Assembly: GCF_013122565.1 (NCBI RefSeq)
Contig: NZ_CP053258.1
DNA from: Escherichia coli
Lineage (GTDB): Bacteria; Pseudomonadota; Gammaproteobacteria; Enterobacterales; Enterobacteriaceae
Length of the DNA: 64,000 nt
Reading direction: 5' to 3' (one strand)
The stretch's first letter is position 1. Every line of letters begins with the position of its first letter. Of this stretch, positions 19,125-55,202 are shown in pieces. The translations under genes and the position numbers were made by a program. The notes below the pieces were generated by a model. It searched no databases. It saw nothing but the letters and a program-made list of their open reading frames with translations, and had not been told where the DNA came from.

Positions 19125-19153
19125 AAGCGCAAGGAACGTTTACCCTTGCGCTT
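19125..19153. terminator. bidirectional stem-loop between convergent yjiC and uxuR
   Basis: aagcgcaagg / ccttgcgctt perfect 10-bp inverted repeat with 9-nt loop, followed by attataata. Confidence 0.5.
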
Positions 19154-19164
19154 ATTATAATAAG

Positions 19165-22878: not shown

Positions 22879-24026
22879 GATTTTTCCTCTTTCACATAGT
22901 GGGTTCCACAGCAAAGAGACGCGGAACCCTGGAGTTGTTTAGGTATCCGGATGAACAACCAGACCGCAGCCGTGGCGTTGCATCGGATGAGATGGCGTAT
23001 AAGTTCTACCTTTTGGTAAGACATGTCAACCCGAATTCTAAAATTGGTTAACCACATCACAAGAATTTCACTCTCATGGTTGTTGATGCAAATTGCAGCA
23101 AAGGGTAATCGATGGTTATTGATCAGAGGATGTGACATTCATAGCAACAATGGTTGACCAATTTACATAACATGTCGCCCAAAATAACAATGGATTAACC
23201 TGGAGAGATAAAACGTTATTAGTTTCTCGCAGACTACGGTGGTGATTGCGCTCATGCTGTTCTACACCTCGCGGTCACGATTGGTGAGATCGTGACCGAA
23301 ACATCGCAAGAAGATTTTTACACACCAGTGTCTGATTATTTAACGACGGCCGCCCGGCGGGGTTATACGCAAGTAGTGGTGAAACCCTACTCAACCACGG
23401 CGTCGAGGTGACCAGCGTTCTGAAGCTGCCCAAAATACAATCCTCTTGCAGAGACTATCCTCTGATCGCCTATTTAAAAATGAATGTTGAACAATTAGGA
23501 AAAGGAAATGTGATTTATTACAATAACTACGGTGACTATTCTAATAATATGACTTGTGAATAAAACTAAATGATCAATGGCAATTTACTACAGATAAAAT
23601 GCCTGACGAGATTCAATCATTATATGTTTAACTTGCCAGACATTTATTTTATAATAAAGAAAAATGCACATTCGTCGATTAATATTCAACGCGTAGACGT
23701 CATATCAGATATGCTATTTAAAAGGAATTAACTCTAATGGCACACAGTATAAAGCAATGTTTCCATGCGGTTGGAAAAGGTACTCTTTATACCGGACAGA
23801 TAAAAAACATGTCTAACAACAGGCTTTTTCGTGCCAGCTATATTTGTCCAGTGTGTCACCCCATCCAAAAATTATCCACATCCTGACGTTACGTTAGATA
23901 TAGAGAAAAGAGGTTGTACTGTGCAATATGCAAACCGCATAAGCGAATATAATTTCTAAGTTGATATTGTCTGGCTGTTGGGAGCTAAGCAATATAAATA
24001 TCACCAGTTGTCAGAACGGTTATATA

Positions 24027-24052
24027 GACCAGGAGCGTTTCGGCTCCTGGTC
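24027..24052 (-). terminator. stem-loop immediately downstream of the UvrD-like helicase gene (end of the DISARM-like operon)
   Basis: gaccaggagc / gctcctggtc perfect 10-bp inverted repeat with 6-nt loop, 17 nt beyond the stop codon. Confidence 0.5.
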
Positions 24053-24068
24053 TGTTTCGGACATATTA

Positions 24069-26183
24069 TCAGTCAGCCACTAATAGCGGGCTAGGGATAC
24101 CAGATGATGAAACAAACAGCCCTTTTACGGCACGGGTTGCAGCCACATGCAGTAACGCGCGCTCATTAAATAATGCATCACGCTGTTCAACGGGATCATC
24201 GGATGCTAATGCTTTTATTTCCGGCACAACGCCTTCGTTAATTCCCACCAGGAACACATACTGGAACTCAAGCCCTTTAATACGGTGCATCGTTGCAACC
24301 CGCACGCCAGGGCGTGCATCGCTGTCACCGCTATCATTGCCTAAATTAAATGTCTCAATTCCGGCGTCATTCAGTGCTGATGCGTAGCGGTCACAAGCAT
24401 GTTTAGTACGCGCAGTAATGCAGATATCCTGAGAACGAACCTGATTCGCCAGCAATGCCTGAATTTGCTTGACGAGCGTTGCAGCCTCTTCTTTGAAATC
24501 TGCCGCATGCGTAATCATGGGCTTTTCCCCGTGCAGTAATGACAAATAATCATTACTGGTATCCGCTTCGCCATCGAGGTTATCAACCTTCACACCAGTT
24601 AACAGCCCAACAGCAAATTGACGCGTCTCTTCTGTGGTCCGATAGTTAATCTTCAATTTTTTACTGCGACGACCACGGACGTTAATACCACACTGACCAA
24701 GAACGACCTTATTGCGATAAATACGCTGATGCCCATCCCCGACAATAAACAGATCGTTGGGCGACTCGGGAACCAGGCTGCGAATAAGAGTAAATGCCGG
24801 GGCACCGATATCTTGAGCTTCATCGACCACAATACTGCTATAAGGTAGTTGAACCTGTTTTTCTTTAAACAGAACAATAGCCTCATGCATGGCATCGCCC
24901 ATTTCGCGCAGTTTGGCACGCGCCATTTGTGCTCTGAATTCTTCAAAGACTGGCCAGATTTTCGCCCGTTGAATACGGGATAACGCTGTACCACGTCCAA
25001 CCCGGCTGACTTTGAGGTATTCCTCCCGGGTGTAAACCGCATTTGGCTGGACAACGCGTTGCCACTCTTCAGCATAGAAATTGTCAGGTAGCCCCAGTTC
25101 GGCAGGTGCCTGCTGCAAGGCATAGTTCCAGCATTTGCGTCGCCCTTCATCGCTGTCGTATACCACGCGGAAATCATAACCGTGGCGTTTTAGTTGGTCG
25201 CTCATCCAGGCATCAATGTTAACGACGTCAATACGCGCCATCTCTTCTCGCGTACACAACCGCTGGAGATTAGCGCGAATATCTGCCGCCAGGTTACGCG
25301 TAAATGTCGTGAAAAGTACCTTCTTACCGGGTTTATCTGCCAGACGCTGAGATAACCACCGCGCACGGTGCATCGCAACAACCGTTTTCCCTGTACCTGC
25401 ACCACCCAGTACTCGTACCGGACCATTAGCGGGCGACTCCACCAGTTTTCGCTGGCTCGGATGCAGAAATACACGCCATTTTTCTAAAGGCGCATTAAGC
25501 ATCTGCAACAGCTCCTGTTCATTTTCAACGACATGGAAGCGACGTTTACTTCGTTCAATCGCCTCCATAAAGTCGTTGGTATCAACAGGCTCATCACGAT
25601 GATCGTTAAACTCTTCCAGCACTTCCTGGTAATCCAGCCCTTCTGCCAGCCAGTGCAGAGGTTCCCAGGCTTCTGCTGGCATTATGCTTTCAAGTTGATT
25701 AAGCCCGGCTTCATCGGTAAGCGCCATCACCTGATCAATAAAGACAGGCGGCACACCCAGGGCCAGAATCTGTTCCGCGCTGTAAGCTGCGAAGAGTTTC
25801 GGTTTATCAACCACCGTTTCCGCTGCCGGTTTGATATAGCTAATATCAATGACCTGAATCGCGCCGGTAACCGGGTGAATCGAACAATCATGCCGCCGCG
25901 CCCAGTCGTATGCTTCGTCGTGTTTATCCACCCACATCAGCATATACAGGGCACCCTGTTCAGGTTTCAGAACAATGCCGCGATAAGTTTGATCGATTCG
26001 CACCGAATGGACATTTTTACTGCGCGCATCGTGGATCTTTTCATAGTTAAGTCCATTACTGGTCGGGTCCTGACGGAATTTGGAGATGAATTCCTGCACC
26101 TTTTTTTGCTGTGCTTTTGGGATCCGCGCGAATGCGCCCAGAAAACCATCAGAAAGTGCCACCTTGGGCGTTTGCACCGTCAT
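24069..26183 (-). CDS. UvrD/Rep-type SF1 helicase with an uncharacterized ~200-aa N-terminal domain
   Basis: 704 aa; Walker A VLGGAGTGKTVVAMHRA, motif II IVVDEAQD, C-terminal VATMHRIKGLEFQYVFLVG; ATGA overlap with the upstream gene. Confidence 0.8.
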   Translation of the reverse strand: MTVQTPKVALSDGFLGAFARIPKAQQKKVQEFISKFRQDPTSNGLNYEKIHDARSKNVHSVRIDQTYRGIVLKPEQGALYMLMWVDKHDEAYDWARRHDCSIHPVTGAIQVIDISYIKPAAETVVDKPKLFAAYSAEQILALGVPPVFIDQVMALTDEAGLNQLESIMPAEAWEPLHWLAEGLDYQEVLEEFNDHRDEPVDTNDFMEAIERSKRRFHVVENEQELLQMLNAPLEKWRVFLHPSQRKLVESPANGPVRVLGGAGTGKTVVAMHRARWLSQRLADKPGKKVLFTTFTRNLAADIRANLQRLCTREEMARIDVVNIDAWMSDQLKRHGYDFRVVYDSDEGRRKCWNYALQQAPAELGLPDNFYAEEWQRVVQPNAVYTREEYLKVSRVGRGTALSRIQRAKIWPVFEEFRAQMARAKLREMGDAMHEAIVLFKEKQVQLPYSSIVVDEAQDIGAPAFTLIRSLVPESPNDLFIVGDGHQRIYRNKVVLGQCGINVRGRRSKKLKINYRTTEETRQFAVGLLTGVKVDNLDGEADTSNDYLSLLHGEKPMITHAADFKEEAATLVKQIQALLANQVRSQDICITARTKHACDRYASALNDAGIETFNLGNDSGDSDARPGVRVATMHRIKGLEFQYVFLVGINEGVVPEIKALASDDPVEQRDALFNERALLHVAATRAVKGLFVSSSGIPSPLLVAD

Positions 26184-29100
26184 TTGTCACCTCCGGACAG
26201 ATGTTGCAATGTATTTTCGTCAATTGGCCCGAATGCAACGTGCCAACCTCTGGTTGTGAATAATGGAATAAATTCTTGATTATCAATAATCAATGCCCAT
26301 TTTTGTGATGGCCAGGCGAGATCGGCTTCTGCAATAATTTCACCCTCATCATTTTGCAATTCGTAGCCGAGAGTCGGCGCAGAGAGAGAATGAGACTGAA
26401 GCAACGCGATCTCTTCAGCGCTTAATAAGCCAAACTCAATAATCTCAGCCCAACTTTCATCAGTCTCTGGTACTGCCTCTGGCGTTGCCGAAACTTTAGT
26501 GTCAACGCTTTCCTGCGGTAAATGCACGGCTTTACGGCTGGTAAAGGTCATATCCGGCAGGAACTGTAACAGGTTTACCAGTCGCCAGAAGCCATTGAGT
26601 CCCGCTTCATAACCGTCATCCTGCGTATAGCGATCGTCAAAACAGATATGCAAACGCAGCCAGCTGCGCATTTGTGCGACGCTGGTCGTCGGTTTAATGG
26701 CTTGTTGTGGTAACACCGAAGCCAGTTCAATAAATTGCTGCGATGAGTTACAGCTATCGAGTAAACCACCAAAGACAAACGGTTCGTCTGGCAAAAGCTC
26801 TGCTAGCCGCCAGGCTGGCGCGTTTTCCTGCATTTCATAGGCATACTTTTGTTTCGTTCCCGCGTCCTGTGACTTCTTCACATCCAACCACACCCAGGCA
26901 TGTGCAGCAGCCATTCTCTGCCATAACTGCGTTCTTCCGCCCGGATCGGCGAGATAATCCAGCAGCAGTGCAAAACTGTTACGTTCCCGGAACGACGCTT
27001 CAAGGGCCGCAAAGTTGGTATCGTGAAACAGGTTATAAAACTTAGGCTGTTTCATATCCGGGTTATGCCCAAGTCCCAGGACATCCTGAACATGTTTAAG
27101 CCCAGGCTCTTTGAGATCGGCCCACGTGACTGTCCACACCCAGAAATTACCGCTATCCCGAATCGCCTGGCGTTTTTGCACATCCTCTGCGACGCTATTT
27201 TTGTGGAACGCAAAGCCATCAAGGAAAATAGCCACCGGTTTAATGGCATCAGACTGCATAAGCGGATATAGCACGTAATCCGGGCGACAAGGGATCCCCA
27301 CCGCCTCTTTAGCGCCTAAATCCACCTGAGCTTTAAGATGCCAGCTCATCATCGGTTCGCTGCGGGTGTTAATAATCCACCCAGCGCCCTGATGCGCGTA
27401 ACTGCGACTGACAATCAGGTTTTTATTTTCTTGCAGGCAGCTAATAAACCGTTTTTCCAGCTCACTGCCCATCATGGCTTCGAGGGAAATGTTTTTGATG
27501 GAATCAATTACCCGTATCGAATCTCTTGCCTGCAAAATTTTCGCCAGCAAGAGACGCGCCTGATCGCGGGAGACATACTTCATGCGCCCACGGTCACGGT
27601 AAGCGTAAACGCAACGATAACAACCATCTTTATGCGTATCATTGTTGCAACTGCATTCCACTATTGCCTGATAGGCCAGTTCAAGTAATTTCAGCAAATT
27701 GTCGGGAGTGCGCATCAGCTCTTTAAGAGAACCAGTTCCCCCCGGGACGGTATCGTAAATCACCAGATACTGCCGCCAGGATTCGCCTTCATTTTCCGGC
27801 TCGCGGTACACAACGCCTTTCAGGTGATCGACATTCCCCTTGAAGTAATGCTTAAGGCCGAGCTGGATCGCCGCCCCAAGAGAAGCCTCCACGACACGGT
27901 CATTACTGTAACTGCTTACCGGGAGCAGAATACGCAACGCTTCTGACTCCAGCTGGCGATAGAGGTAGAGATAATCTTCGAACTTCGCCTTTTCCGGTTC
28001 CGTGCGATATTTGCAGCTCAAATCATGACGTGGTTCATGATCGCGAGGACGCTGCACCATGCCGCACCCGAGGCAAACTTTAAACCCGGTTCGCTTCTTC
28101 GCTTCTCCGGCAATCATCAACTCATTGGCATCATCCGCCATTTTGCCGAAGTTGATATCCCGCAGGGTGACTTTGCTTAAAAATTCAAAACCAAACGGAA
28201 CTTCGCCTTCCTCAATCGCGTATGCCGCCGATACATCTTCTTTTTCGAAACTAACCAATAGCTGACGCTGGAAGAAAGCAGGTTCACGGCTGTCGCTCTC
28301 GTCGCTGATCTGGCTATCACGTGCGCTGGCGCGGGCATAAACCTGGCGAAGTTTCAGCAGCGTGGTTTTTTGTCCGGCATCGGCCCACCCCGGTGTGCCA
28401 CATTTCGGGCAATATTTATGCTGGTCGCCCGTCTGGTCGATATTTTCGCTGTAGTTACAGTGGCTACAGATACGCCAGTTCTCCGGCTCAGAGACCTTCA
28501 GGTCTATCTGCTCAATTTCAACTTTATGCCCACCGGCATAGAAATTATTCAGCGGAGCCAGCTCAGCCAGCGCCGTTGATGCCGGGCGTTCATATTCGAA
28601 AGTGGTGTTTTGATATTCACGCGCTTCCCCGCCTTCTTTACGCCGCCAGAGCACAGAACGTAACGTAATACCGGCTTCCGGGAAGGCGTAGTTAGGCAGC
28701 AGCCCTTCATCCGTGAGGAAATTCAGCGTTTGCTTATTGTTGATTTGATTGACCAGCGCCATCAGCGCCTGTCGTTCTGAAGTTAACTCGCGCATATCGC
28801 TATCAAAGTTTTGATCGCGCGGCGCGTTCTCCAGTTTATCGATACTGCGCTTGAGCTTATCGATGCGTGAGCGCAAAGATTTGCGATCTTCCACCAGCAG
28901 TTTTAACGCTTCTTCGATACGCTGCACCAGCGAGCGTTGTCCTGGCGCGCCCTGAAGATAAGACAACAGCTGTTGGCGAGTTTCTGCGGCAAGATCGGGG
29001 AAGATCGCCGTAAATTGTGCAGCAATCTCCGCATGATGCTGTTCGATATATCGCAGTAAGTTATACGGAAAACCCGATTTACGCCCGAACTCCAGCTCAT

Positions 29101-32100
29101 CCAGCATCTGTTTGACGTTTTTACAGATAGCGGATTCTGGTACACCGGTTTTCACCCAGTTATCCATACAAAAAGCTGCCAGCTGGCGTTCGAGAATAGC
29201 CGTTGCATTGAGGAAGACGCCAGGAGCCTGCACCTGGCCCTGCATCATCTCCAGCGGTTCTTCAAAGAAAAACTGATCGTGCGGGTTCCCTTCTGCCACG
29301 GTAATGTTTAACGCGTTACCATCTTTACGACCGGCGCGACCAATACGTTGCAAGTAGTTGGCCTGAGCAGGTGGGACAGAACAGAGTAAAACGGTGGAAA
29401 GATCCCCAACGTCAATACCCATCTCCAGCGTCGGTGTTGCCGACAACAGGTTGATATTCCACGGTTGGTTGCCGCGGTAGAACGATTTTTCGGTGGCTTC
29501 GCGATCTTCACGGCTAAGCAGCCCCGTGTGTTCTGCGCCCTGCACGCGCGCGATGTCCATGTTCTCCCAACGCCAGGTCGCCATATTGTCGACTTCCTGG
29601 TAACGACCTTCACAACGTAAAGAGAGACAAGGCGCATTACGCCACTGCCAGCCTTGATCGGCCGGAGCCCGGACAACCTCACGGCAACATGAGCAATTAA
29701 GCTGAACGACGTCACGGCTCACCACCAGCGCCGAAGGCACCAGTCCCCAGGCTTCACGCCCTTTGGTGTCAAAATCTTTTACTACTCCGGCTATTTTCAA
29801 CGCCGTAAACAGGCGTCGTAACACCGTTTCCGCAACGCTACTGATAAACAGATTATTGCCGTTACTCAGCGTGCGATTGATCCAATGCTGATACCAACTG
29901 GGGTTAGACTTCGCGCCAATCAGGCGATGGAAACCATTAATTTTTTCAAACGACGCATAAGCCGGTTTACGCGTTTTCGGACCGATAGAAGGCATATAGC
30001 GCGAGGTACGCTCTTTTTGCGTCATCATAAAGGTCGTGCCATCACGGCGATAACTTTCGAACGCCGGATGCATAACGGCCCCGGCCTGGCGTTGATACCA
30101 GATAACCCCCAGCGCCAGGTGCGCTACCTGCTCGACGCTCACACCGGACATCTCATCACCCAGCTCTTCACAAAGCTGTTGATGCAGGGCGGTAATTGCC
30201 GGATTAAAGCGTTCTTTATCCACTCCGGCAACGGCATAACCGGTGGCTTCCAGCGTACGTCCGATACGCGCGCGCAGGGTAAATTCGCTGTACACCTCCC
30301 AGTCGAGGCGCAGGGAAACCAGCTCCGGCAGATCGGAGTTCTCCGCCAGTTTGCCTTCATTTTTCAGCGTCTGATAATCATTCAGCCACTGCATATTTGG
30401 TGCGATGAAGTTCGCTGCAAAATGAGCATCGTCCGGTGAACGTTCACGCGTTTGTTGGCAAACACGCGCCGCGAACGCATCCAGCGGTAATGTCTCTTTT
30501 TCGCCAAGAACACTGGCGATTTGCCCACGAATCATCAGCGGCCAGGTACGGGCAGTAAAGAAGCTGGCACGATGCGCGGCGTCTTGTACCGAGTCAGAAA
30601 ACGTAATCAGCTTTTTATGTTCGTTGAACTGGCTGCCATAAAGCTGGTGAATCATCACCGCCGACAAACTAGCAGCCCGTGACCCCAGGATCGAAATCCC
30701 CTGTTTGCTGTTGCAGTACGGGCATTCATTAGCAAACTCCAGCTCGTCCTTACGCTCTTTGAGCATATCCGGGATCAGTACCTGCAACAGTTCCGTATGA
30801 CCGCAATATCCACACTGGACGCTGGACTGTCGGTTCAGTTTCAGACAGGTAGGGCATAGTTTCTGGTGTGCGCCACTGACCGCTTTTTCGTTGTTATCCG
30901 GGAAAGCAAGGACGATGGAGCGCCCTTTTTCAAAGAACTGGCGATAAATGCCGTCGAGGTCTGTTTCCAGCTGAACGCTTTGCCCATGACGCAGGCTGGC
31001 CCAGCCGGTTGCATGGCAGTCACGGCAGTGGATAACCGGCAAATAGTGTTCGCGATCTTCCACCGCCACATCATCGGCAAACACCAGTCTCGGCGTTTTC
31101 GCCACGCTGGCGACCAGACGACGCATCTCACGAAGCCACAACTGGGAACGCAGTTGCACAAACGGCAACACCGGGCGCGCTTTCTTCGCCTGGAGACGTT
31201 TTTGCCGATCGTGGTCCGTTTCCGGTACTTCGAGACGTGCCTGCGCGATCAGCGCCAGAATGCTTTGCAGCACGCTTCGGGCATGGTCGGCGCTTTCTGC
31301 CAGCATGACCTGGAGATTTTCCAGACACTCTCGTTCAGAGAGGATACCGCCTTGCAGATCATGGAGTAAGACATGCATCACGCTGTGGCGGCGTAACAGT
31401 GACCCCAGCGCAATACGCTTTTCACGCCCGTCGTCGCTCTCCAGATCGTCCGGAAGCTGCAAGTCGCTGTCGGGGAACCACAAAGGAATTTGCCCGTTGA
31501 GATACGCCACCGGGGTAGCGTAACTCTGCGGGTCCAGGGCCGAAGCGACCTCCGGCCCCGGATACTGACTGTACGCAATGGCGTAATCCTGCAAGTACTC
31601 CGCTGCCGTGTAGCGATCTTCGCGAATAACGGCGTCATCGGTAAACGGCTGGTCAAAGATTGTTTTTGCGTAATCGAGCAGTTGCCCCAGTTCGTCGCCG
31701 ACGGTAGCTGATGTCCCGACGCAGGCGAATCGTTGGTTATCCACACCTATGTGATGCTTCAGACGTCGCACCAGACAGGCCAGATCCGACCCCTGCGCGC
31801 CATCAAACGTATGCAATTCATCCACGACCAGGTAACGCAATGAACCGGGCTGGTTGTAACGCCAGAGCGGCTGATCGCCAGGGCGCATCAGCAGGTAGTC
31901 GAGCATTTTGTAGTTGGTCAACAGGATGTCCGGCGGGCTTTCGCGCAGCGTGTGCTTGCAGGTAATGACCTTTTCTGCCGACATTTTTTTGCTGGGTTCG
32001 ATTTCGCTGTCGCCGACAAACAGGCCGACGGTCACCTTGCCATGCAGTTGTGGATCGCTGGCGATGGTTTTGGCGAAACGGCTGGCCTGATCGGTTGCCA

Positions 32101-37437: not shown

Positions 37438-37439
37438 GA

Positions 37440-40298: not shown

Positions 40299-40488
40299 CG
40301 GTTTTTCTGTCTATTTGGGGCAGTGGCGGTAACGTCATCCTGAAAAATGTGGCGCGGCACACTGCGATAAAAAAGAGGGCCTTAAAGATATCATGAAGGC
40401 CCCCGGCAAAGTGACAAAATGGGAGGGAATGCGCATAAATTGCGCATGATTTTCAAACAAAAATTATTAAAAAGTGAGCTGGGTCAAC

Positions 40489-40514
40489 TCCCCTGGAAGA
40501 TATCCCCAGGGGAG
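40489..40514 (-). terminator. stem-loop between druE and the DISARM-like operon
   Basis: ctcccctgg / ccaggggag 9-bp inverted repeat 8 nt past the druE stop; a T-rich stretch follows about 15 nt later on the transcribed strand. Confidence 0.4.
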
Positions 40515-40521
40515 CAATTAT

Positions 40522-46500: not shown

Positions 46501-46845
46501 TAACAAGGATTTTTTGTCTTCCAGAATCGTTCGCCACGCAGTGAGTTGATGACGAAATGGCACTGGCGCTTTGCTCAATGCATCAACCAGCGGGCTGGAG
46601 ATCAGCTTGTCCCGCAAATCCTCCATTGTTTCATCCGCAGGCATCCAGCCGAATGTACTTTCGAATACCGGGTCTGCAAGCAGTGACCCCTCCTGACCGG
46701 GAGGCTGAAAATATTGTGATTCCAGATAATGAGTCAACGACTTGCTCCGCAATGCCAACTGACTTACCACCGACCTCACCGCACGCTGATGAAGCTGATT
46801 TAGAAGTGGCGCATAATGCAGTTGCTGAACGTCCATCAATGACAT
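40522..46845 (-). CDS. druE: Druantia DruE: giant helicase with Zn-ribbon/DUF1998-like region
   Basis: 2107 aa; Walker A GTGSGKTECF, DEAH motif VLDEAH, helicase C region QRAGRAGRRGE, CxxC clusters; paralogous to the 2113-aa protein at 26180..32521. Confidence 0.8.
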   Translation of the reverse strand: MSLMDVQQLHYAPLLNQLHQRAVRSVVSQLALRSKSLTHYLESQYFQPPGQEGSLLADPVFESTFGWMPADETMEDLRDKLISSPLVDALSKAPVPFRHQLTAWRTILEDKKSLLVSSGTGSGKTECFMVPVLEDLIRQQKSTRQSLTGTQAIFLYPLNALINSQQERLREWTRGFKGKIRFALYNGETRHTKYEIQEDQLKVPEQALSREAIYEAPPSIMVTNTTMLEYMLIRRKDAPIIEKSQGMLKYIVLDEAHSYIGSQAAELALLLRRVMQAFNVGPGTDKPVQIIATSATIGEDSPEGNKELAKFVADLAGVTERDVKVVRGYRQIPRVSESLIRHEYPTSLTSLKSLSPQDLYQQLCHYRVAQQLRQALTHPGRQAVRLSELLNVARRTWPDINHRELLQLLDLMARSREGELAFTPLRMHGFIRTLAGLWACSNKQCSHKAHELNQSDWPFGQVWFEQRQYCDCGAPVFEVLRCSGCGSAYLSAKEEMRGDGTNWLVAQPAAAEVDEFALDVDVYSEDEDNDELDNNSQFDRLIASDGEKYIISLEETTAGKIDSEAQKHYEINLLRPESRGEGRNNSFACVCCGDTQRKNNPLFRPLRLGAPFFLNEIIPTLLEFSPLPQTREEQLGPFNGRRLLTFTDSRQGTARISARLQQDADKATLRALCYQELANITEPSAKLSPAHCALLEKVISQFSVLPLKNSIDALKKAMAANEELSPADIQALKIIEPMVSSLSPDHAEAMQILQANSGNQQKKTMSWQTLSEQLVGSVDLADRMRGSFKELSGLDLTKQQFADFCLYSEFGRRPKNAWTLESLGLVAIHYPFIDKVTTCPQDWKTLLPDPDKQLAEWRNLLKITLDFFIRENSAVFYENEQYPRWMGARFPVKMLQGPDKKNKGQKRDQLWPQIRDRHYNRVIKLLIAVFPAIQPEQAHWKSLVNHLMIEVWDAIRPCLRQFESGYQLDIKQQAEFYSPKQVWRCPYTRRALDVTLLGYSPYLPGSKEIAPEKAVLIEMPELPVRHWRLSGGGEIAREERLEWLESNALIQHAREEGLWSTRSDRLALKDSWYRLEEHSAQRTPEQNQFNEKQFKSGKVNVLNCSTTMEMGVDIGGMSLVAMNNVPPAPANYLQRAGRAGRRGESASAAITLCKNTAHGMEVFKDPLWAFNTTASAPRVRFGSSSIVQRHVNALVLGLFLRAEVPDATKLSCKWFFEGDESQCLRFLHWLNHQADQLADKLKRLTQGTVLMSLTATQLLTRTQAMMQQVDIRWRSQLAILLENIEALKADNSAWEETPAGKAIAYQLRDYRGAYLFSKLISEAFLPGHGFPVGVVNFNYLTADELEKRRAIKATQADPNEGGESFSRRIEKLPSRDLPTALREYAPGADVVLGGKVYRSSGIMLGKVLASGQELSGDHHIPWFWHCRKCGAGATSTTRPVECSHCKADIQQLDVKRYLQPVGFATDIRYQAHNDVSMPAQLPWKDPRVLVPSSVWVSLPDAGLGRYRFSHSGELFHFSEGEFGHGYAICLSCGRAESQTQPQRTPENLKNPERENTHYLLRGGSNDRQGSNKLCHGHVHKDLWLGYSSRTDMVELQLNDDNGLLIRDEVAARSLAVALREGLAHKLGIENTELGVTTQQARDINGYTGYSIFIYDNNAGGAGYAVQLIDHWADVFNYARKLLDCSCDKFCHHCLLSYDSQHYVNRLDRHHALTLLTNVRLQRLNLAPEYQYFGDGSRVETNPLSLRIAQCLNSEIYDSCSLVLAGPQEQWDFAQWPLFKELLQFASSGGNVELLVATPLENLTDSSRHQLSALAAMPGGRLQVKSIATAQLMQGKGRWLAQVTREGQSQQWAADDSATVAPGELWGQSASSPVVTLKGTSGKTFSGQTLSAEDLLPALPTGAVRINLCEQLDGPLEGFGSRFWSLVTQQHAGWKQAFTRHKEITHVEYSDRYLNSPFTARLLGEILTELVEQGMAERASLTVCVKKLDYNSRQHDALYNAWLNEEDRQQVVTTLLEEGYLGPAWPGAISWLTGDNQSTEHGRELTVTFSDGSQHYVLLDMGLSYWRCIEDTLFDFALRVPQQVERLANTRSRAVAPGNDLRSYVIAG

Positions 46846-49800
46846 ACTCCTGCTTGTTCAAAATAATATTGATAGATTACCCCTAATTGCTGTGGGGCTT
46901 GCTGATAGTGAAATTCAAAAAGCGCAGACAGTTGATGTATCAGGTTATTATCTTTTTGGGTTAACAGCGCTGCGACTAACATCAAATTAAAACGTTTTTC
47001 AAGCCGTGAGTGATATTTATCTTCAATCCAAAGCTTATTAAAAACAGATTTTAACTCTGGAGTAATAGCACTGGACCAAAGTTCTTTAGGGAAGATACTG
47101 ATACGCCCAAAGCTGTCGGGGTTCCTTAATAGCATCTGTTTAGCTTCATTAAACTGCTCACGACTAACAGTTGGCAATACATCACAACCGGTTGGTAGGC
47201 TCTCACTATATGTAAGTAACATATTCGCAATGGGAGCCAGCCGACGATCGATATGTGCACGATGGTTCATAAAAGCAATAAAGGGTCGCAATATATGTAA
47301 TGCTAATGTTTTATCGTTAATCTGTTTTTCCAGATAAGTCCAACATTTTTGGAAAACATCTTTCCAGATTGAAACGGGAATCCATCCCCATGAAAAGGGT
47401 AATTCTTCCTGTATATCATAAATCGTATCGCTATCACCAGAAAGACATGATGATATTAACAATTGAACAACCACGCGGTAATTACTCGAAATACATCTGA
47501 ACAAGTCCAGATCCAGCAAGGATAAGCCATTATTCATTTTGTATTTCTTAATATACTCTGTTAATAAACAGCAATAATTTTGCAATGGGTTGTTATCTAT
47601 TTCAAAAATTAGCTCATTAAAATTTTTTTTGCGCTGTTCTGGGTCTGCTTCGCATAGAGCATTTAGTAATAAATCATTTGTCTGTAATACAGGTAGCATC
47701 CATTTAATTACTGGTGCAATGCGAGCTGTACCATCCAGTTTTCCCACAATTAACCATGGACTATCCTGAACATTCAGAGCTGAAAGATCATAAGCAAACT
47801 CATCTTTTTTTAACAATGATATGTGTAAGCCAGGATTCTTAAGAGAAATAGCATCAACAACCAGTTCGTCTATTCTATTTGCAGGAAAAACAACAGAATT
47901 TTTTATATCAACCAGTAACCCTTGATCGTGTTCAATAAAACTACCATCGTAGCGTTTAATATTGAGTGTTGCTTTATCCTTTCCAAATCTGTCAGAGTAA
48001 AAATCAACACATAATGTACTATTGCTGTTCCATGCACATGCCAGCATAGCATTTAGCAAATTATAGTTCTCATAAAGTGAAATTTGTTGTAATTTGTCAT
48101 TGCGTCCTGATAAAAGAGGAAGGTCGGCATGTAAATAACGGAATTTTTCAGCTACTGGATTTTCATCGAATAACTCGATATTAAGATATCCTCTTCCAGC
48201 ACATGATATGGTTAATAACTCAGCATCTATTCCATGCAAATGTGCTATAGATGCCACACCATCAAAATGAACAGAACCATCATTAGTTACAAATCGGCCA
48301 CCGCTAACCGGCTTAGGTAATAATAGTTTAAGATTAGAACCATCTTTCCAGGAGACCCGTAAATCAACGGTATTTTCCAGCATCTGCGATGAATTATAAT
48401 AAATAGCACACTCGTTTTGTGAATAATCGGACTTAAGTGTTACTTTTTCATTGTTTGAATATTTATCAATTCTAGTATCCGTTATACCAGAAAGTATAAT
48501 AATGCCTTGCTGAGCACTCTCAGGTATAATATTAATATCGAAGTCTGCTGGTAAAACTACAACTTTACCGCTAAATAAAACCTCATCATTAACTATTCGC
48601 CGGACTTCTATCTGTCCTTTTGGCATTTCTGATGCGACAGAATACCAGGCATTGTTACCTGAACGAATGGAACGCCAAAAAAGTTCTTTCTCCGGTACAA
48701 TGCCATATTGTAGATCCTTTTTCCAACCGATCTTCGGCCAGGCTCGATGGACAGGATAATCCGATTTAACCAGTTCAACTTCTGTCGATTTAATATAATA
48801 TTCAATTGCAGAATCATAAAGTTGCTGGGTGCGAATTGTACAAACAGCACCATCATGTAAAACAACGCTAAATACTCCACTTATTTTAGTTAAGCTGCGT
48901 TCACTGTTTTTCAGCAACCTTGGGATATCAAACTCACCTTCTCCACTAATATCTAAATGGCTATTTTTCGGTAGCGAAATAAACAGAGCATTTAGCCTGG
49001 AACTCACAGACCCCATACCAACAAGTTTTAGCTGCGATTCACTCTCATTCATCGCTTCAAAAACCCAGGGAAGTTCTTCAGTAAGTTCATAACCGCCTTT
49101 TGGAATTGTGTGACCTAACAGAATTGGACCTTCATGAAGCGACAATGAGATTTCGGCCATTGCATCTGCACCAGAGAGTTTTTGCATCGCAATAGGTAAT
49201 AACTCGACCCGCCAATCTTGCTGCTCATAACGGCTTAGCATTGCCAACCTTGCCCCGCCATTTTTCCATTTTCCTGAAATGATGAGTCGGGTCTGCTCCG
49301 GCTGAATATGGCATTCAAACAAAGAGGTTAACTGTTCTGTACGCATTGTGGCCGGGAATCGGAACCGGGCATCGCAATACCAACTGTCATCAACATCGAC
49401 CCAGATTCTTTCAACCTGAAGACTACTTGCACTGCGTATTTCAGAAGATTGAGAAAGTAATCGCCTTACAATCTCTGCAGCATTCGCTTCGGGGAGAACG
49501 AGTGGAAGTTGAAGATGCCAGTCTGGAGAGAGCTTACGTAATGCAGAAACGGGATCACTGCTTTGAGGAGGATGCTCACTAAGTAATCGGCAGAGAGTCT
49601 CGCAGAATTCACCGGCTATTTCATAGACCAGTTCGTTTTGCATTGTGACAGGAATCGTATCGCCTAATTCTTGTGCAATTTTAGCGGCAGGATATTGAGA
49701 TGATTGCCCACGAAGCGCCTGATATATCCTTCTGAAATAGGTAATCAAATAACCGCTCTCATTTTCAATCATGCGGATAGGTAAACCACCTTCACAAGCC

Positions 49801-50195
49801 AGTGTATGCAGATAACCCGAAGCTTGCCCCAGGTTTCTTATCTTTCTTTTCCAGTAGCGAATGCCATCATTAACCAGCTTCTGTCGATGAACATACGGAA
49901 CTTTCCAGTTAATAGAATCTAAAATTGTGTCCCATTTAGGGTGTCCGACCGTATGAGTTCGGCGGATAAACTCTGCGGCATATATGCTAAATAGAACATC
50001 GCTATAGGAAATGAATATCGTTCTTGGATAACTACGGGGGGCATATGTACGCAGTAGTTCTGCCAAACTTTCGTACTCTGTATCAGTACAACGGTAAGCA
50101 TATAACGCCCGTCCATCAGCTCCGGATAATGAACGGCGACTAAAAAACATGTTAAGCCATTGCAAAAGTGGGTTAACTGGAGTTTTCACAAGCAA
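46836..50195 (-). CDS. druH: Druantia type III DruH-like protein (no recognisable catalytic motif)
   Basis: 1119-aa AT-rich ORF immediately upstream of druE with 10-nt overlap; TTG start preceded by AAGGAAGG; assignment is by size and position. Confidence 0.6.
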   Translation of the reverse strand: MLVKTPVNPLLQWLNMFFSRRSLSGADGRALYAYRCTDTEYESLAELLRTYAPRSYPRTIFISYSDVLFSIYAAEFIRRTHTVGHPKWDTILDSINWKVPYVHRQKLVNDGIRYWKRKIRNLGQASGYLHTLACEGGLPIRMIENESGYLITYFRRIYQALRGQSSQYPAAKIAQELGDTIPVTMQNELVYEIAGEFCETLCRLLSEHPPQSSDPVSALRKLSPDWHLQLPLVLPEANAAEIVRRLLSQSSEIRSASSLQVERIWVDVDDSWYCDARFRFPATMRTEQLTSLFECHIQPEQTRLIISGKWKNGGARLAMLSRYEQQDWRVELLPIAMQKLSGADAMAEISLSLHEGPILLGHTIPKGGYELTEELPWVFEAMNESESQLKLVGMGSVSSRLNALFISLPKNSHLDISGEGEFDIPRLLKNSERSLTKISGVFSVVLHDGAVCTIRTQQLYDSAIEYYIKSTEVELVKSDYPVHRAWPKIGWKKDLQYGIVPEKELFWRSIRSGNNAWYSVASEMPKGQIEVRRIVNDEVLFSGKVVVLPADFDINIIPESAQQGIIILSGITDTRIDKYSNNEKVTLKSDYSQNECAIYYNSSQMLENTVDLRVSWKDGSNLKLLLPKPVSGGRFVTNDGSVHFDGVASIAHLHGIDAELLTISCAGRGYLNIELFDENPVAEKFRYLHADLPLLSGRNDKLQQISLYENYNLLNAMLACAWNSNSTLCVDFYSDRFGKDKATLNIKRYDGSFIEHDQGLLVDIKNSVVFPANRIDELVVDAISLKNPGLHISLLKKDEFAYDLSALNVQDSPWLIVGKLDGTARIAPVIKWMLPVLQTNDLLLNALCEADPEQRKKNFNELIFEIDNNPLQNYCCLLTEYIKKYKMNNGLSLLDLDLFRCISSNYRVVVQLLISSCLSGDSDTIYDIQEELPFSWGWIPVSIWKDVFQKCWTYLEKQINDKTLALHILRPFIAFMNHRAHIDRRLAPIANMLLTYSESLPTGCDVLPTVSREQFNEAKQMLLRNPDSFGRISIFPKELWSSAITPELKSVFNKLWIEDKYHSRLEKRFNLMLVAALLTQKDNNLIHQLSALFEFHYQQAPQQLGVIYQYYFEQAGVCH

Positions 50196-50406
50196 CCTGC
50201 CTTCCTTTGATACAATTCGTAACAGGTTACTATCATCATAAAAAAGCTCAACCCGATGAACTCGCTAAAAATGAGACAAATCATTTATATCTCGAAAAAA
50301 CTTGTTACAATCATGAGCGCTACACCGAACTTAACCATATAAATTATGTGTGTTTTGTTTATTTTTTAAACGATTACAACTATCCATTATTTACACAGGT
50401 ATCAAA

Positions 50407-52059
50407 ATGTTAGCGCAGCTTTTTGAGCAGTTGTTTCAATCGATAGACTCTACACTGATCACCAATATTTTCATCTGGGCTGTTATATTCGTATTTTTAT
50501 CAGCGTGGTGGTGTGACAAAAAAAATATACATAGTAAGTTTAGAGAATATGCTCCAACCTTAATGGGGGCATTAGGTATTCTGGGTACTTTCATTGGTAT
50601 TATTATTGGTTTACTCAATTTTAATACCGAAAGTATTGATACCAGCATCCCCGTATTATTAGGTGGCCTAAAAACAGCATTCATTACAAGCATTGTAGGT
50701 ATGTTTTTTGCCATTTTATTTAATGGAATGGATGCTTTCTTTTTTGCCAATAAACGAAGTGCGTTAGCAGAAAATAACCCTGAATCTGTTACACCTGAAC
50801 ATATCTATCATGAATTAAAAGAGCAGAACCAGACTCTGACTAAATTAGTCTCGGGTGTTAACGGTGATAGTGAAGGTTCTCTTATTGCTCAAATAAAATT
50901 ACTACGTACTGAGATTAGCGATTCTTCGCAGGCACAATTAGCTAATCACACTCATTTCAGTAATAAGCTTTGGGAACAACTTGAACAATTTGCAGATCTA
51001 ATGGCAAAAGGTGCTACAGAACAAATTATTGATGCTTTGCGACAAGTTATTATTGATTTTAATGAAAATTTAACTGAACAGTTTGGTGAAAACTTTAAAG
51101 CACTTGATGCCTCTGTAAAAAAACTTGTTGAGTGGCAGGGAAATTATAAAACGCAAGTTGAGCAGATGTCAGAACAGTATCAACAAAGTGTCGAGTCCCT
51201 GGTTGAAACAAAAACTGCGGTTGCAGGGATTTGGGAAGAATGTAAAGAAATTCCTCTGGCTATGTCTGAACTGCGTGAAGTGCTTCAGGTGAACCAACAT
51301 CAAATCAGCGAACTCTCCCGCCATTTAGAAACCTTTGTCGCCATCCGCGATAAAGCAACAACCGTATTACCTGAAATACAGAACAAAATGGCTGAAGTGG
51401 GTGAACTGCTGAAATCCGGAGCTGCAAATGTTAGTGCATCTCTTGAGCAAACCAGCCAGCAAATACTTCTTAATGCAGATTCAATGCGCGTGGCCCTGGA
51501 TGAAGGTACCGAAGGATTCAGACAATCGGTTACCCAAACACAACAAGCATTTGCCTCGATGGCACATGATGTCAGCAATTCCTCCGAAACCCTAACCAGC
51601 ACGTTAGGTGAAACAATTACTGAAATGAAACAAAGTGGTGAAGAATTCCTGAAATCACTAGAGTCGCACTCGAAAGAATTGCATAGAAATATGGAACAAA
51701 ATACTACGAATGTGATTGATATGTTCAGTAAGACTGGTGAAAAGATTAACCATCAACTATCCAGTAATGCCGATAATATGTTTGATTCAATCCAGACATC
51801 ATTTGATAAGGCAAGTGCAGGGTTGACTTCTCAAGTCAGAGAATCAATTGAAAAATTTGCTCTATCCATCAACGAGCAGTTACATGCTTTTGAGCAAGCA
51901 ACTGAACGTGAAATGAACCGTGAAATGCAATCATTAGGTAATGCTCTGCTTTCAATCAGCAAAGGTTTTGTCGGTAACTATGAAAAACTTATTAAAGATT
52001 ACCAAATAGTTATGGGGCAGTTACAAGCATTAATTTCTGCTAATAAACATCGCGGGTAA
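50407..52059 (+). CDS. zorA: Zorya ZorA: MotA/ExbB/TolQ-like channel with long coiled-coil tail
   Basis: ORF 50350..52059; preferred start ATG at 50407 (MLAQLFEQ); N-terminal TM helices, then about 400 aa of E/Q/L-rich predicted coiled coil. Confidence 0.8.
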   Translation: MLAQLFEQLFQSIDSTLITNIFIWAVIFVFLSAWWCDKKNIHSKFREYAPTLMGALGILGTFIGIIIGLLNFNTESIDTSIPVLLGGLKTAFITSIVGMFFAILFNGMDAFFFANKRSALAENNPESVTPEHIYHELKEQNQTLTKLVSGVNGDSEGSLIAQIKLLRTEISDSSQAQLANHTHFSNKLWEQLEQFADLMAKGATEQIIDALRQVIIDFNENLTEQFGENFKALDASVKKLVEWQGNYKTQVEQMSEQYQQSVESLVETKTAVAGIWEECKEIPLAMSELREVLQVNQHQISELSRHLETFVAIRDKATTVLPEIQNKMAEVGELLKSGAANVSASLEQTSQQILLNADSMRVALDEGTEGFRQSVTQTQQAFASMAHDVSNSSETLTSTLGETITEMKQSGEEFLKSLESHSKELHRNMEQNTTNVIDMFSKTGEKINHQLSSNADNMFDSIQTSFDKASAGLTSQVRESIEKFALSINEQLHAFEQATEREMNREMQSLGNALLSISKGFVGNYEKLIKDYQIVMGQLQALISANKHRG

Positions 52060-52065
52060 TCGATC

Positions 52066-52773
52066 ATGGATAAGATTATAGGGAAACAATTACCTAAAAA
52101 AGATCAAGATAATGAACATTGGGTATCCATGTCAGACCTAATGGCAGGGCTGATGATGGTTTTTATGTTCATATCTATTGCTTATATGCACTACGTACGT
52201 ATTGAAAAAGAAAAAATTAAAGAAGTTGCCGTAGCCTACGAGAATGCTCAGTTACAGCTTTATAATGCTCTGGATATTGAGTTTGCAAAGGATTTACAAG
52301 ACTGGGATGCAGAGATCGATAAACAGACTCTGGAGGTTCGATTTAAATCACCGGATGTTTTATTTGGCTTAGGAAGCACAGAGCTAAAACCAAAGTTTAA
52401 ACTCATTCTTGACGACTTTTTTCCTCGCTACCTAAAAGTTCTAGATAATTATCAGGAACATATTACTGAAGTCCGCATTGAAGGTCACACAAGTACTGAC
52501 TGGACAGGAACAACGAATCCTGATATTGCTTATTTTAATAATATGGCACTATCACAAGGTCGTACACGTGCAGTATTACAATACGTTTATGACATAAAAA
52601 ATATCGCGACACACCAACAATGGGTTAAAAGTAAATTTGCCGCAGTAGGTTATTCATCTGCACATCCCATTCTTGATAAAACCGGCAAGGAGGATCCTAA
52701 TCGCTCTCGTCGTGTCACCTTCAAAGTTGTAACAAATGCCGAGTTGCAGATTAGAAAGATTATTCAGGAGTAA
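52066..52773 (+). CDS. zorB: Zorya ZorB: MotB/OmpA-like peptidoglycan-binding partner
   Basis: 235 aa; single N-terminal TM (LMAGLMMVFMFISIAYM), C-terminal OmpA-like domain (NMALSQGRTRAVLQYV); starts 6 nt after zorA. Confidence 0.8.
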   Translation: MDKIIGKQLPKKDQDNEHWVSMSDLMAGLMMVFMFISIAYMHYVRIEKEKIKEVAVAYENAQLQLYNALDIEFAKDLQDWDAEIDKQTLEVRFKSPDVLFGLGSTELKPKFKLILDDFFPRYLKVLDNYQEHITEVRIEGHTSTDWTGTTNPDIAYFNNMALSQGRTRAVLQYVYDIKNIATHQQWVKSKFAAVGYSSAHPILDKTGKEDPNRSRRVTFKVVTNAELQIRKIIQE

Positions 52774-52776
52774 GAG

Positions 52777-53880
52777 ATGAAATTATCTATCGACATTTCA
52801 GAACTTATTCAATTAGGGAAGAAAATGTTACCAGAAGGAGTCGATTTTTTTCTGGATGAATCCCCTATTGACTTTGATCCTATAGATATTGAGTTATCAA
52901 CGGGTAAAGAAGTTAGTATCGAAGATCTTGACCCTGGTAGCGGGCTTATCTCTTATCATGGCCGCCAGGTTCTTTTATATATTCGGGACCATTCAGGGCG
53001 TTATGATGCGGCTATCGTAGATGGCGAAAAAGGAAAACGTTTTCATATTGCCTGGTGCAGAACTCTTGATGAAATGCGCCATAAAAATCGATTTGAAAGG
53101 TATCATGCAACTAACCGCATAGATGGTTTATTCGAAATTGATGATGGTTCAGGTCGGAGCCAGGATGTTGATTTACGGGTATGTATGAATTGCCTCGAAC
53201 GGCTTAATTATAAAGGAAGTATTGATAAACAAAGAAAAAGAGAGATTTTTAAATCATTCTCATTAAATGAGTTTTTTTCAGATTATAGTACCTGTTTTCG
53301 TCATATGCCTAAGGGTATCTATGACAAAACAAATAGTGGGTATGTCGAAAACTGGAAGGAAATATCTAAAGAAATACGAGAAAAGGCAAATTATGTTTGT
53401 AATGATTGTGGCGTGAATTTATCAACCGCCAAAAACTTGTGCCATGTCCATCATAAAAATGGCATCAAATATGATAATCACCATGAAAACCTTCTTGTTC
53501 TGTGCAAGGATTGCCATCGAAAACAGCCCCTCCACGAAGGTATATTCGTTACCCAAGCAGAGATGGCTATCATTCAACGTTTACGTTCCCAACAAGGGTT
53601 ATTAAAAGCAGAATCCTGGAATGAAATATATGACCTGACTGATCCATCAGTGCATGGTGATATTAATATGATGCAACATAAAGGCTTTCAACCTCCTGTT
53701 CCTGGGTTAGATCTTCAAAACTCAGAACATGAAATTATTGCAACCGTAGAAGCTGCATGGCCAGGCCTTAAAATTGCAGTTAACCTTACTCCCGCCGAAG
53801 TCGAAGGATGGAGAATATATACCGTGGGTGAGCTGGTTAAAGAAATACAAACCGGAGCCTTTACGCCAGCAAAATTGTAA
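52777..53880 (+). CDS. zorE: Zorya type II ZorE: HNH endonuclease domain protein
   Basis: 367 aa; HNH-type Cys/His motif CNDCGVNLSTAKNLCHVHHKNG...NHHENLLVLCKDCH; 3 nt after zorB. Confidence 0.8.
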   Translation: MKLSIDISELIQLGKKMLPEGVDFFLDESPIDFDPIDIELSTGKEVSIEDLDPGSGLISYHGRQVLLYIRDHSGRYDAAIVDGEKGKRFHIAWCRTLDEMRHKNRFERYHATNRIDGLFEIDDGSGRSQDVDLRVCMNCLERLNYKGSIDKQRKREIFKSFSLNEFFSDYSTCFRHMPKGIYDKTNSGYVENWKEISKEIREKANYVCNDCGVNLSTAKNLCHVHHKNGIKYDNHHENLLVLCKDCHRKQPLHEGIFVTQAEMAIIQRLRSQQGLLKAESWNEIYDLTDPSVHGDINMMQHKGFQPPVPGLDLQNSEHEIIATVEAAWPGLKIAVNLTPAEVEGWRIYTVGELVKEIQTGAFTPAKL

Positions 53881-53891
53881 ATTCTAAAACT

Positions 53892-53915
53892 CCGTGAAAG
53901 TTAAGACTTTCACGG
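53892..53915 (+). terminator. stem-loop after zorE
   Basis: ccgtgaaagt / actttcacgg 10-bp inverted repeat with 4-nt loop, 11 nt after the stop; following tract is A-rich not U-rich. Confidence 0.4.
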
Positions 53916-54090
53916 AAGATAAATAAAATTATTCTGATTTGTGACTCAAATTACAAAAGTAGTTAATGGCATAACTTGTCTTGTTTTTATGGTATAACAG
54001 GTATAAAGGTATATGCTATGGTTCGCCTCATACTTAAAACTTCCCTCATACGGGTGAAGGTTAAAGCTTGGTAGACAGGAGACAGTCACA

Positions 54091-55197: not shown

Positions 55198-55202
55198 CGC
55201 TT

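Follow-up and report, generated by a model that had tools for sequence, protein, structure and literature searches.

The closest described relative of the locus studied here is the nine-gene array zorABE-druHE-armABCD of Escherichia coli O157:H7, which corresponds to z5894-z5902 of O-island 172 (OI-172) in strain EDL933 (Li et al., 10.1101/2025.09.22.677730) and joins three defence systems: type II Zorya, type III Druantia and type II ARMADA. ARMADA type II was defined by Bell et al. 2025 (PMC12458937), and the whole nine-gene locus was described and deleted experimentally in two preprints of September 2025 (10.1101/2025.09.22.677730; PMC12458937). Phage resistance was shown for the ARMADA II systems of O157 and ATCC 8739 (PMC12458937; 10.1101/2025.09.22.677730), the latter strain being the host of the native deletion experiments (PMC12458937). 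All three systems are found together in 426 of 3792 genomes (Li et al., 10.1101/2025.09.22.677730). Here we analyzed a 64,000-nucleotide stretch of the E. coli contig NZ_CP053258.1 (assembly GCF_013122565.1), hereafter the window, in which such an array lies between uxuA and nanM.

Judged from sequence, the nine genes of the window are very likely the OI-172 Zorya-Druantia-ARMADA array, present as one mobile unit rather than as three acquisitions at this place. Their defence content is already known: in work of 2025-26, nine near-identical genes received their names, were deleted and cloned, and some of their structures were solved. We compared the proteins with those of O157:H7, ATCC 8739 and TW14425, and eight of the nine are 99.1-100% identical to the experimentally studied O157/ATCC 8739 proteins, ArmB being the exception at 90%. 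OI-172 (O157:H7 EDL933/NCTC 12900) agrees with the window in all nine genes and in their order, orientation and spacers, with 99.2% nucleotide identity over 20 kb; eight of its nine proteins are at least 99.5% identical to those of the window, while ArmB (90%) has a different variable block. In the ATCC 8739 array, ArmD and ZorE are 100% identical to ours and the others 99.1-99.6%, again with ArmB at 90%. What differs is the location. OI-172 lies inside the leuX island beyond nanS, with fim intact and a nanM relic of 36 + 245 bp after zorE, and the ATCC 8739 array with its nanM relic is flanked by copies of the insertion sequence IS1 in a tRNA-Phe island beside cadC, whereas the array of the window sits between uxuA and an intact nanM, without fim, gntP and nanC.

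Nine intact long open reading frames (ORFs) occupy positions 24069-53880, six on the minus strand and three on the plus strand. Neighbouring genes of one operon share 1-4 nt or leave gaps of 2-6 nt; armA and druE, which run in the same direction, are 223 nt apart, and the divergent druH and zorA 211 nt. The array reads as follows, with guanine-cytosine and adenine-thymine abbreviated GC and AT:

23823-24068, minus strand: conserved left end of the array, downstream of armD (246 bp), with a GC-rich hairpin at about 24030-24053
24069-26183, minus strand: armD, 704 residues; UvrD/GajB-like helicase (residues 240-700) with a RelE-fold N-terminal domain (residues ~1-115)
26180-32521, minus strand: armC, 2113 residues; DEAD/DEAH helicase of the YprA family that includes an MZB (DUF1998) domain and, C-terminally, a nuclease-like region
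32521-37437, minus strand: armB, 1638 residues; PglX/DrmMI-like N6-adenine DNA methyltransferase
37440-40298, minus strand: armA, 952 residues; SNF2 helicase, BrxHII/RapA/DrmD-like
40522-46836, minus strand: druE, YprA-family helicase-nuclease of Druantia type III
46836-50195, minus strand: druH, partner protein of Druantia type III
50196-50406, no strand: druH/zorA intergenic region, presumed from the gene arrangement to hold both promoters
50407-52059, plus strand: zorA (type II), stator subunit of MotA/ExbB-like type, long-tailed at the C-terminus
52066-52773, plus strand: zorB (type II), MotB-like peptidoglycan-binding subunit (PADLOC ZorB2, 2.2e-104)
52777-53880, plus strand: zorE, the Zorya II effector, an HNH nickase extended at its C-terminus (PADLOC ZorE2, 8e-177)
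53881-54070, no strand: AT-rich array tail after zorE (190 bp), 92-95% identical in all compared copies

The genes of Druantia type III and those of Zorya type II show no detectable difference from the described systems. DruH and DruE, adjacent and co-directional, have full-length matches both in PADLOC and among cryo-EM structures: DruH matches the DruH3 model with 2549 bits (profile 1-1117 of 1117) and the structure 9tud with 2568 bits, and DruE matches DruE3 with 2182 bits and 9tu7 end to end with 4886 bits. They are 99.5% (DruH) and 99.6% (DruE) identical to their O157 counterparts. The start of druE is ambiguous, the longest ORF beginning at 46845 (2107 residues, as annotated in TW14425) and the form of O157 and ATCC 8739 at 46836 (2104 residues); the latter, which overlaps the druH stop by 1 nt, is the probable true start. 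The three Zorya genes form one operon with full-length PADLOC matches. ZorA (ZorA2, 1001 bits, profile 1-545 of 545) aligns from residue 20 of its longest ORF, which begins at 50350, and 50407 is the probable true start; the protein is 99.5% identical to the PGAP-annotated zorA2 products of O157 and ATCC 8739. ZorB is 100% identical to O157 ZorB2, and ZorE to ZorE of ATCC 8739. A scan for promoters and terminators over 49900-54200 gave counts equal to those of shuffled sequence and was uninformative.

The Pfam families that match DruH and DruE carry the names YjiT_N/YjiT_2nd and YjiV_N, taken from E. coli genes. In K-12, yjiT and yjiV are located in the mcrBC-hsd region, which would suggest Druantia III-related remnants in that strain.

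The remaining four genes are assigned to ARMADA type II, a system related to DISARM without being a member of it, because their domain content, their strict order and the RelE-fold N-terminus of ArmD match the published definition (PMC12458937). The order armA-armB-armC-armD, that is SNF2 helicase, methyltransferase, YprA/MZB helicase and GajB-like helicase, lies entirely on the minus strand, with genes overlapping or 2 nt apart. All tested defining components of ARMADA type II (Bell et al. 2025, PMC12458937) are present in that order, including the RelE-like ArmD N-terminus; we found no difference in kind, and the window has its own allele of the ArmB variable region. All eight residues whose mutation affected ARMADA defence are kept in context: K136 and D236 of ArmA, G605 (S-adenosylmethionine-binding motif) and N971 (NPPW motif) of ArmB, K110 and D234 of ArmC, and K266 and D454 of ArmD. 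None of the four proteins reaches any NCBIfam cutoff. ArmB and ArmA are also homologous to PglX and BrxHII of BREX, but BrxA, BrxB, BrxC and PglZ are missing here and the PglX models score 25-28 bits, far under their cutoffs.

ArmA is 99.8% identical to the O157 protein and matches DrmD (1.4e-99) and BrxHII (9.4e-60) in PADLOC, RapA in NCBIfam (1.3e-38) and SNF2-rel_dom and Helicase_C in Pfam; it scores 349 bits with the NCBIfam model DISARM_DrmD (NF038317), against a cutoff of 610. ArmB is the most divergent of the nine proteins, only 90% identical to the O157 and ATCC 8739 alleles. It matches DrmMI (2.3e-57) in PADLOC and, weakly, Eco57I, MmeI_Mtase and N6_Mtase in Pfam. Its C-terminal part contains a hypervariable block (33117-34132, residues ~1102-1440, 44.8% GC) made of two sub-blocks, 33132-33422 and 33422-34132. 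This block is unlike that of all six compared loci, with 75-87% identity where it can be aligned and parts that cannot, and presumably corresponds to the target-recognition region. The exact ArmB protein occurs in only two contigs of the public collection; in both it adjoins uxuA, with the same junctions as in the window.

ArmC is 99.5% identical to the ATCC 8739 protein. Pfam places its DEAD domain at residues 84-278, Helicase_C at 993-1066 and MZB at ~1549-1638, and its closest solved structure is DruE (9tu7, E = 4.5e-48), and YprA (6znp) matches at 3.8e-20; the PADLOC DruE models match partially (4.7e-104) and the DrmA models at 3.9e-14. Vsr-like or Vsr-type domains were predicted in the C-terminal part of ArmC (Bell et al., PMC12458937). 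A search of this C-terminus against PDB sequences with phmmer returned nothing. A model of the last 473 residues, built on an alignment of only six sequences, has a mean pLDDT of 53, with residues ~50-160 at 75-88, and its top Foldseek matches are PD-(D/E)xK restriction enzymes (PaqCI, PspGI, TnsA), all non-significant (E at least 0.15). A motif 'RPD...FLDG.AFH...D..KR' is conserved in this region across homologues.

The ArmC C-terminus also resembles another protein of the array. Residues 2021-2096 (26183-26475) are homologous to the C-terminal extension of ZorE (residues 279-335, 53611-53781), with 40% identity over 57 residues (pairwise E = 2e-8) and a match of the PADLOC ZorE2 model to ArmC at 5.9e-9. 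The ZorE extension is typical of Druantia-associated ZorE proteins and has no family assigned (2026 preprint).

ArmD is 100% identical to ArmD of ATCC 8739 and matches GajB in PADLOC (2.5e-36) and UvrD-helicase/UvrD_C in Pfam. Its first 240 residues match no Pfam family, and phmmer found no match for the N-terminus among PDB sequences. An AlphaFold2 model of residues 1-236, built on a 36-sequence alignment, has a pLDDT of 93, and the top 15 Foldseek matches in the PDB are all RelE/YoeB/YafQ toxins or RelE-fold Cami1, the RelE-type matches having target-normalised TM scores of 0.66-0.77 and a probability of 1.0. Homologues of ArmD are named 'RelE' by JGI.

Two further observations concern armD. 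Its final ~450 bp (24069-24521) are 95-96% identical to a gene annotated as a 3'-5' exonuclease that adjoins a terminase gene (NZ_JCAPUH010000002.1, 138 kb), and a terminase fragment lies beside armD on plasmid pPSJ-12_1.

A mechanism can be proposed from the literature on near-identical proteins. ZorA and ZorB would form a 5:2 ion-driven motor in the inner membrane, anchored to peptidoglycan and with the long tail of ZorA in the cytoplasm; this motor would recruit or activate ZorE, the HNH nickase effector (PMC11890865). DruH, a proposed sensor, would bind single-stranded DNA, and the YprA-family helicase-nuclease DruE would be activated by 3'-overhang DNA and act on 3'-tailed replication intermediates (10.64898/2026.05.12.722862; PMC13192584). 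By analogy with the tested copies, ARMADA II would need all four genes together with its ATPase and methyltransferase motifs, and would block phage directly, without cell killing, membrane damage or metabolic shutdown (PMC12458937). As in the native hosts, ARMADA II may be dominant and act in strong synergy with Druantia III, the synergy between Zorya II and Druantia III being weaker and phage-specific. Three points temper the identification with a functional OI-172 array. With ArmB at just 90% identity to the alleles that were tested, the specificity of the methyltransferase, and strictly the activity of this allele, are presumptive; the defence function of this strain's array is likewise presumed from its likeness to tested copies; and the published evidence on ARMADA II and on the array consists of preprints.

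The nine genes are distributed as a unit. Of 5426 complete E. coli genomes, 520 contain no less than 80% of the ARMADA half, and 502 the same minimum share of the Druantia and Zorya half. Across four contexts the common unit extends from 23823 to 54106: position 23823 is the exact base from which identity to O157, ATCC 8739 and SMS-3-5 is high, and on the right this identity persists through the tail as far as the end of nanC and the beginning of nanM, the tail up to 54070 being unrelated to the nanC coding sequence. The array is hosted by the leuX island in O157:H7 and SMS-3-5, plasmids carry it in part, and EC3 retains only an IS1-truncated relic in a second tRNA-Phe island. IS1 is found 196 or 734 bp past armD in most other contexts sampled.

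The borders with the E. coli backbone were located by megablast against the 5426 complete genomes, and involve the following features:

21694-22878, minus strand: uxuA, mannonate dehydratase, left backbone gene with its start codon at 22878
up to 23219: uxuA-gntP intergenic region, backbone
23220-23822, plus strand: left island edge, lineage-specific (603 bp, 39% GC); pseudogene of the uracil-DNA-glycosylase (UDG) family followed by ~260 bp of AT-rich spacer
54071-56355, plus strand: right backbone, comprising the final nanC base, nanM (54091-55197, intact) and the nanS ORF (55235-56242)

Homology with ordinary E. coli ends at 23219, which is base 2 of the gntP start codon (O157:H7 locus position 15296), and restarts at 54061-54071 in the final bases of nanC, 54071 being its last base in O157:H7 coordinates. 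An island of 30.85 kb (23220-54070) thus stands in place of the 12.4 kb gntP-fim-nanC segment. In O157:H7 and in the array-less strain Z0117EC0040, gntP-fimH..fimB-nanC is present between both border points, and blastn and tblastn with the O157 genes gave no match to gntP, fim or nanC in the whole window. The earlier note on this DNA had reported that nine large genes in tightly coupled operons, forming stacked phage-defence systems of mosaic composition, replace the gntP/fim/nanC interval between uxuA and nanM. The ORF coordinates and these comparisons bear this out, the full-length PADLOC matches confirm its Druantia (druH/druE) and Zorya names, and the nine genes are not part of the E. coli core. 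The composition is indeed uneven: druH, zorA, zorB and zorE have 37-39% GC (druH 39%), druE 49% and armA-D 50-53%, the last being nearer to uxuA and uxuB (55-58%).

An assembly artefact was rejected, the same junctions being found in the independent complete genomes of TW14425, Res13 strains and S43. We also rejected site-specific integration at the uxuA-nanM locus: the window contains no tRNA gene, no integrase is encoded among the nine ORFs that make up the whole interval, and the two borders share no direct or inverted repeat of at least 11 nt, their common 9-10-mers being at chance level. Flanking direct repeats, proposed in the earlier note as something to look for, are accordingly lacking at that length.

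At the right junction, nanM is a clear member of its family (NCBIfam NF010730, 601 bits against a cutoff of 416), and the right backbone is 97.9% identical to that of the array-less Z0117EC0040 (17011-19295 of its locus, L010), which is collinear with the window on both sides. Because the succession of nanC end, nanM, nanS, a remnant of a phosphorothioated-DNA-dependent restriction enzyme and AbiE is collinear with that of array-less strains, we regard nanM here as the resident gene in its native context.

Elsewhere the same junction is found in a decayed form. Behind zorE, O157:H7, ATCC 8739, SMS-3-5, EC3 and E. coli plasmids have a piece of nanM with the final nanC bases in front of it, at the following positions of the compared loci:

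O157:H7 (L002): 22072-22349
ATCC 8739 (L005): 42272-42549
SMS-3-5 (L006): 11578-12095
EC3 (L009): 13097-13345

PGAP labels this relic as a partial 'N-acetylneuraminate epimerase' or a 'Kelch repeat' pseudogene. The words nanM and epimerase are absent from the main text of both array preprints, so the relic seems to have gone unnoted before. O157 and SMS-3-5 have two copies of a nan segment of 2.2 kb (L010 17011-19237), one on either side of a block made of a segment X, a UDG-family gene, the array and its tail. The copy next to zorE has decayed through deletions that differ between strains: in window coordinates, O157 and ATCC 8739 lost 54107-54443 and 54689-56380, and SMS-3-5 lost 54588-56112. 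The surviving relics carry 3.7-5% private substitutions. Intact nanM next to the array is found in the present genome, in TW14425 and in Escherichia sp. E1V33 (NZ_RHJI01000003.1), and every other E. coli copy examined has the decayed relic. E1V33 was the single match in a scan of species-representative genomes with a zorE 25-mer; over its readable 1310 bp it is collinear with the window, with zorE at 98%, the tail at 94% and an intact, divergent nanM at 85-97% identity. The sites in nanM that link the window to the relics are only 54100 and 54480, and only 54100 under a stricter filter that includes an array-less strain; two such sites are too weak alone to decide a direction.

The left junction has a different character. 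The UDG-family pseudogene that follows the gntP start codon is 5'-truncated, frameshifted and internally deleted, and the left edge is found at full length in only nine genomes. Positions 23300-23439 are 72.5% identical to a UDG-family gene that adjoins armD in 93 other genomes, and tblastn with the SMS-3-5 protein matched residues 39-67, 71-109 (in a shifted frame) and 188-216. The neighbouring array is 97-99% identical to other copies while this edge is only ~72%, from which we infer that the junction, gntP ATG fused to a truncated UDG pseudogene, arose by a later, secondary deletion or recombination. O157, SMS-3-5 and ATCC 8739 agree with each other across this point. No complete, closely related UDG-family allele that could point to the progenitor of the left junction was found in the 5426 complete E. 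coli genomes.

The related strain EC23HZZ201 carries a shortened version of this edge (L008 8660-11076), in which uxuA and the first 270 bp of the left edge are followed by IS1, a truncated integrase and tRNA-Leu (leuX). In this strain, an IS1-mediated deletion has stripped a window-type ancestor of the array, of nanM and nanS and of the entire leuX island.

How this layout arose can be argued in two ways. We tentatively favour, as an even chance at best, that the junction of zorE tail and nanC end with an intact, native nanM represents the array's original junction with the Escherichia chromosome. The copies in leuX and tRNA-Phe islands and on plasmids would then descend from such a nan-locus insertion and carry a piece of nanM as a relic; mobilisation together with flanking nan DNA would have proceeded first by homologous single-crossover insertion and later by IS1. 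The duplicated nan layout of O157 and SMS-3-5 is what a single-crossover insertion would be expected to leave if the circle already held the array-nanM junction. Several points weigh against this history. The direction of change is not proven, only one or two nanM sites link the window to the relics, the E1V33 evidence covers 1.3 kb on the right side of the array, and a left flank of ~72% next to an array of 97-99% requires at least one extra recombination event.

Conversely, the window may derive from an OI-172-like duplicated ancestor (uxuA-gntP-fim-nanC-nanM-nanS'-X-UDG-[array]-nanC end-nanM-nanS') by reciprocal loss, with one deletion of ~15.6 kb that began at the gntP start codon and reached into the gene of the UDG family; we consider this possible, though unlikely. 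The fim-proximal nan copy would have been deleted and the array-proximal one kept, and conserved, as the sole copy, so that fim would have been lost beside an island already there rather than replaced. In its favour, the left junction cuts the UDG-family gene at about codon 21, and SMS-3-5-type islands have this gene beside armD at the same place and in the same orientation; O157 and SMS-3-5 show the duplicated layout; and IS1-mediated deletions are known in this lineage (EC23HZZ201). Yet the array-proximal nan copy is decayed in every duplicated genome examined, with 3.7-5% substitutions as well as deletions, whereas the copy in the window is 99% identical to the resident allele of the array-less strain and collinear with it well past nanS, so that the deletion would have to be very early. 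In addition, the UDG remnant is a different allele (72%) from that of the proposed ancestor, and the duplication seems in turn to be secondary, the result of a single-crossover insertion by a circle that already had an array-nanM junction.

ArmB could in principle be a self-contained Type IIG restriction-modification enzyme with three helicases as mere neighbours, as its best PADLOC match over nearly its full length (REase_MTase_IIG, E = 1.4e-281) would suggest. This is very improbable, as Pfam recognizes no nuclease domain in ArmB, the four arm genes overlap or nearly abut, and the loss of any one of them abolishes defence in the near-identical O157 system (PMC12458937).

A variable hotspot between uxuA and nanM, into which Zorya, Druantia and a DISARM-like block were inserted independently, had been proposed in the earlier note, and we find hardly any room for it. 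It draws on the GC contents of the modules (druH and zor 37-39%, druE and arm 49-53%) and on the separate occurrence of the systems in a few genomes (41 of 3792, 10.1101/2025.09.22.677730, and a few more among the present matches). However, about 500 of 5426 genomes share one gene order, the spacers and the outer boundaries, although the chromosomal contexts are unrelated and some copies lie partly on plasmids, which speaks for a unit of fixed order and not for independently acquired modules. The uxuA-side junction of the island occurs in only 9 of 5404 genomes that have uxuA, and the intact zorE-nanM junction in only 3, so uxuA-nanM is not a general hotspot. No integrase, tRNA gene or direct repeat of at least 11 nt marks the internal or outer borders of the modules. 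GC differs even within Druantia (druH 39%, druE 49%), whose two genes co-evolve as one module (PMC13192584), making GC mosaicism a weak argument for separate arrival; it probably reflects an older history of the parts.

The label 'DISARM-like' fares better as a statement of kinship than of membership. Class 1 DISARM, in the 2018 work of Ofir et al., reportedly has a similar order of SNF2 helicase, methyltransferase and helicase. Least credible of all is that the four genes are themselves a class 1 DISARM, since, in spite of DrmD-like (1.4e-99) and DrmMI-like (2.3e-57) matches, a helicase with DUF1998/MZB and an order resembling that system (Fig. 1 legend, 10.1101/2025.09.22.677730), there is no separate DrmB, helicase and MZB (DUF1998) being fused in one 2113-residue ORF, no PLD-family DrmC (no PLD match in the four proteins, the fourth gene being a RelE-UvrD helicase), an NCBIfam DrmD score (349) under the cutoff of 610 and an ArmC whose match to the DruE models (4.7e-104) is far stronger than that to the DrmA models (3.9e-14), and Bell et al. 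set these helicases in a separate clade closer to Druantia (PMC12458937). Membership in DISARM was rejected on these DrmB, DrmC and DrmD features. Common to both systems, in similar order, are an SNF2 helicase, an N6-adenine methyltransferase of large size and a DUF1998-bearing helicase of the YprA family; what differs here is the fusion of helicase and DUF1998 with its own C-terminal nuclease-like region, the lack of DrmC and the additional RelE-UvrD helicase. The block is, in its gene content, better described as ARMADA type II.

Around the array, the window contains several other features. About 1 kb past nanS lies a fourth defence system, AbiEii (57278-58225, minus strand, PADLOC 5.5e-128) with AbiEi (58218-58682, minus strand, 5.3e-53), a pair also present in array-less strains such as Z0117EC0040. 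Between nanS and this pair, 56344-56891 holds the remnant of a restriction endonuclease that binds phosphorothioated DNA (ORF 56385-56639, NF045808, 2.4e-16). Compared with TW14425 and array-less strains, the window has lost ~570 bp with an HNH endonuclease gene (L010 19296-19866); it differs from TW14425 also by a 9-nt indel somewhere in 33422-56355. On the far left, two segments do not align to E. coli Res13: one encodes a 720-residue pentapeptide-repeat protein (2909-5071, plus strand), the other a 1746-residue inverse autotransporter adhesin (7637-12877, plus strand) with an IatC-like N-terminus (1127 bits, below the cutoff of 2400). At the corresponding place, O157:H7 has a frameshifted iatD. 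Finally, a run of small genes at 59631-62849 (minus strand), including RadC (60338-60811), resembles the 'moron' module that ends leuX/pheV-type islands (Bell et al., PMC12458937).

The new elements of this locus are modest: a rare structural context, a distinct ArmB allele and a plausible account of the nanM relic. In this natural lineage, the array coincides with the loss of the fim, GntP and NanC genes from the locus, as judged over the 64-kb window, and may thus link phage resistance, presumed by analogy, with an adhesion and colonisation trait in one structural variant. The additional allele of the ArmB variable region should be useful for mapping the methylation specificities of ARMADA. 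From the layout one can also plausibly explain why zorE is accompanied by a nanM relic in O157:H7 and other carriers: if the junction is indeed the original one, the 36-500 bp nanM fragment in OI-172, SMS-3-5, ATCC 8739, pheV islands and plasmids would be the fossil of a single nan-locus insertion. Such a relic could help to date and trace the spread of the array, and with it of a medically relevant island.

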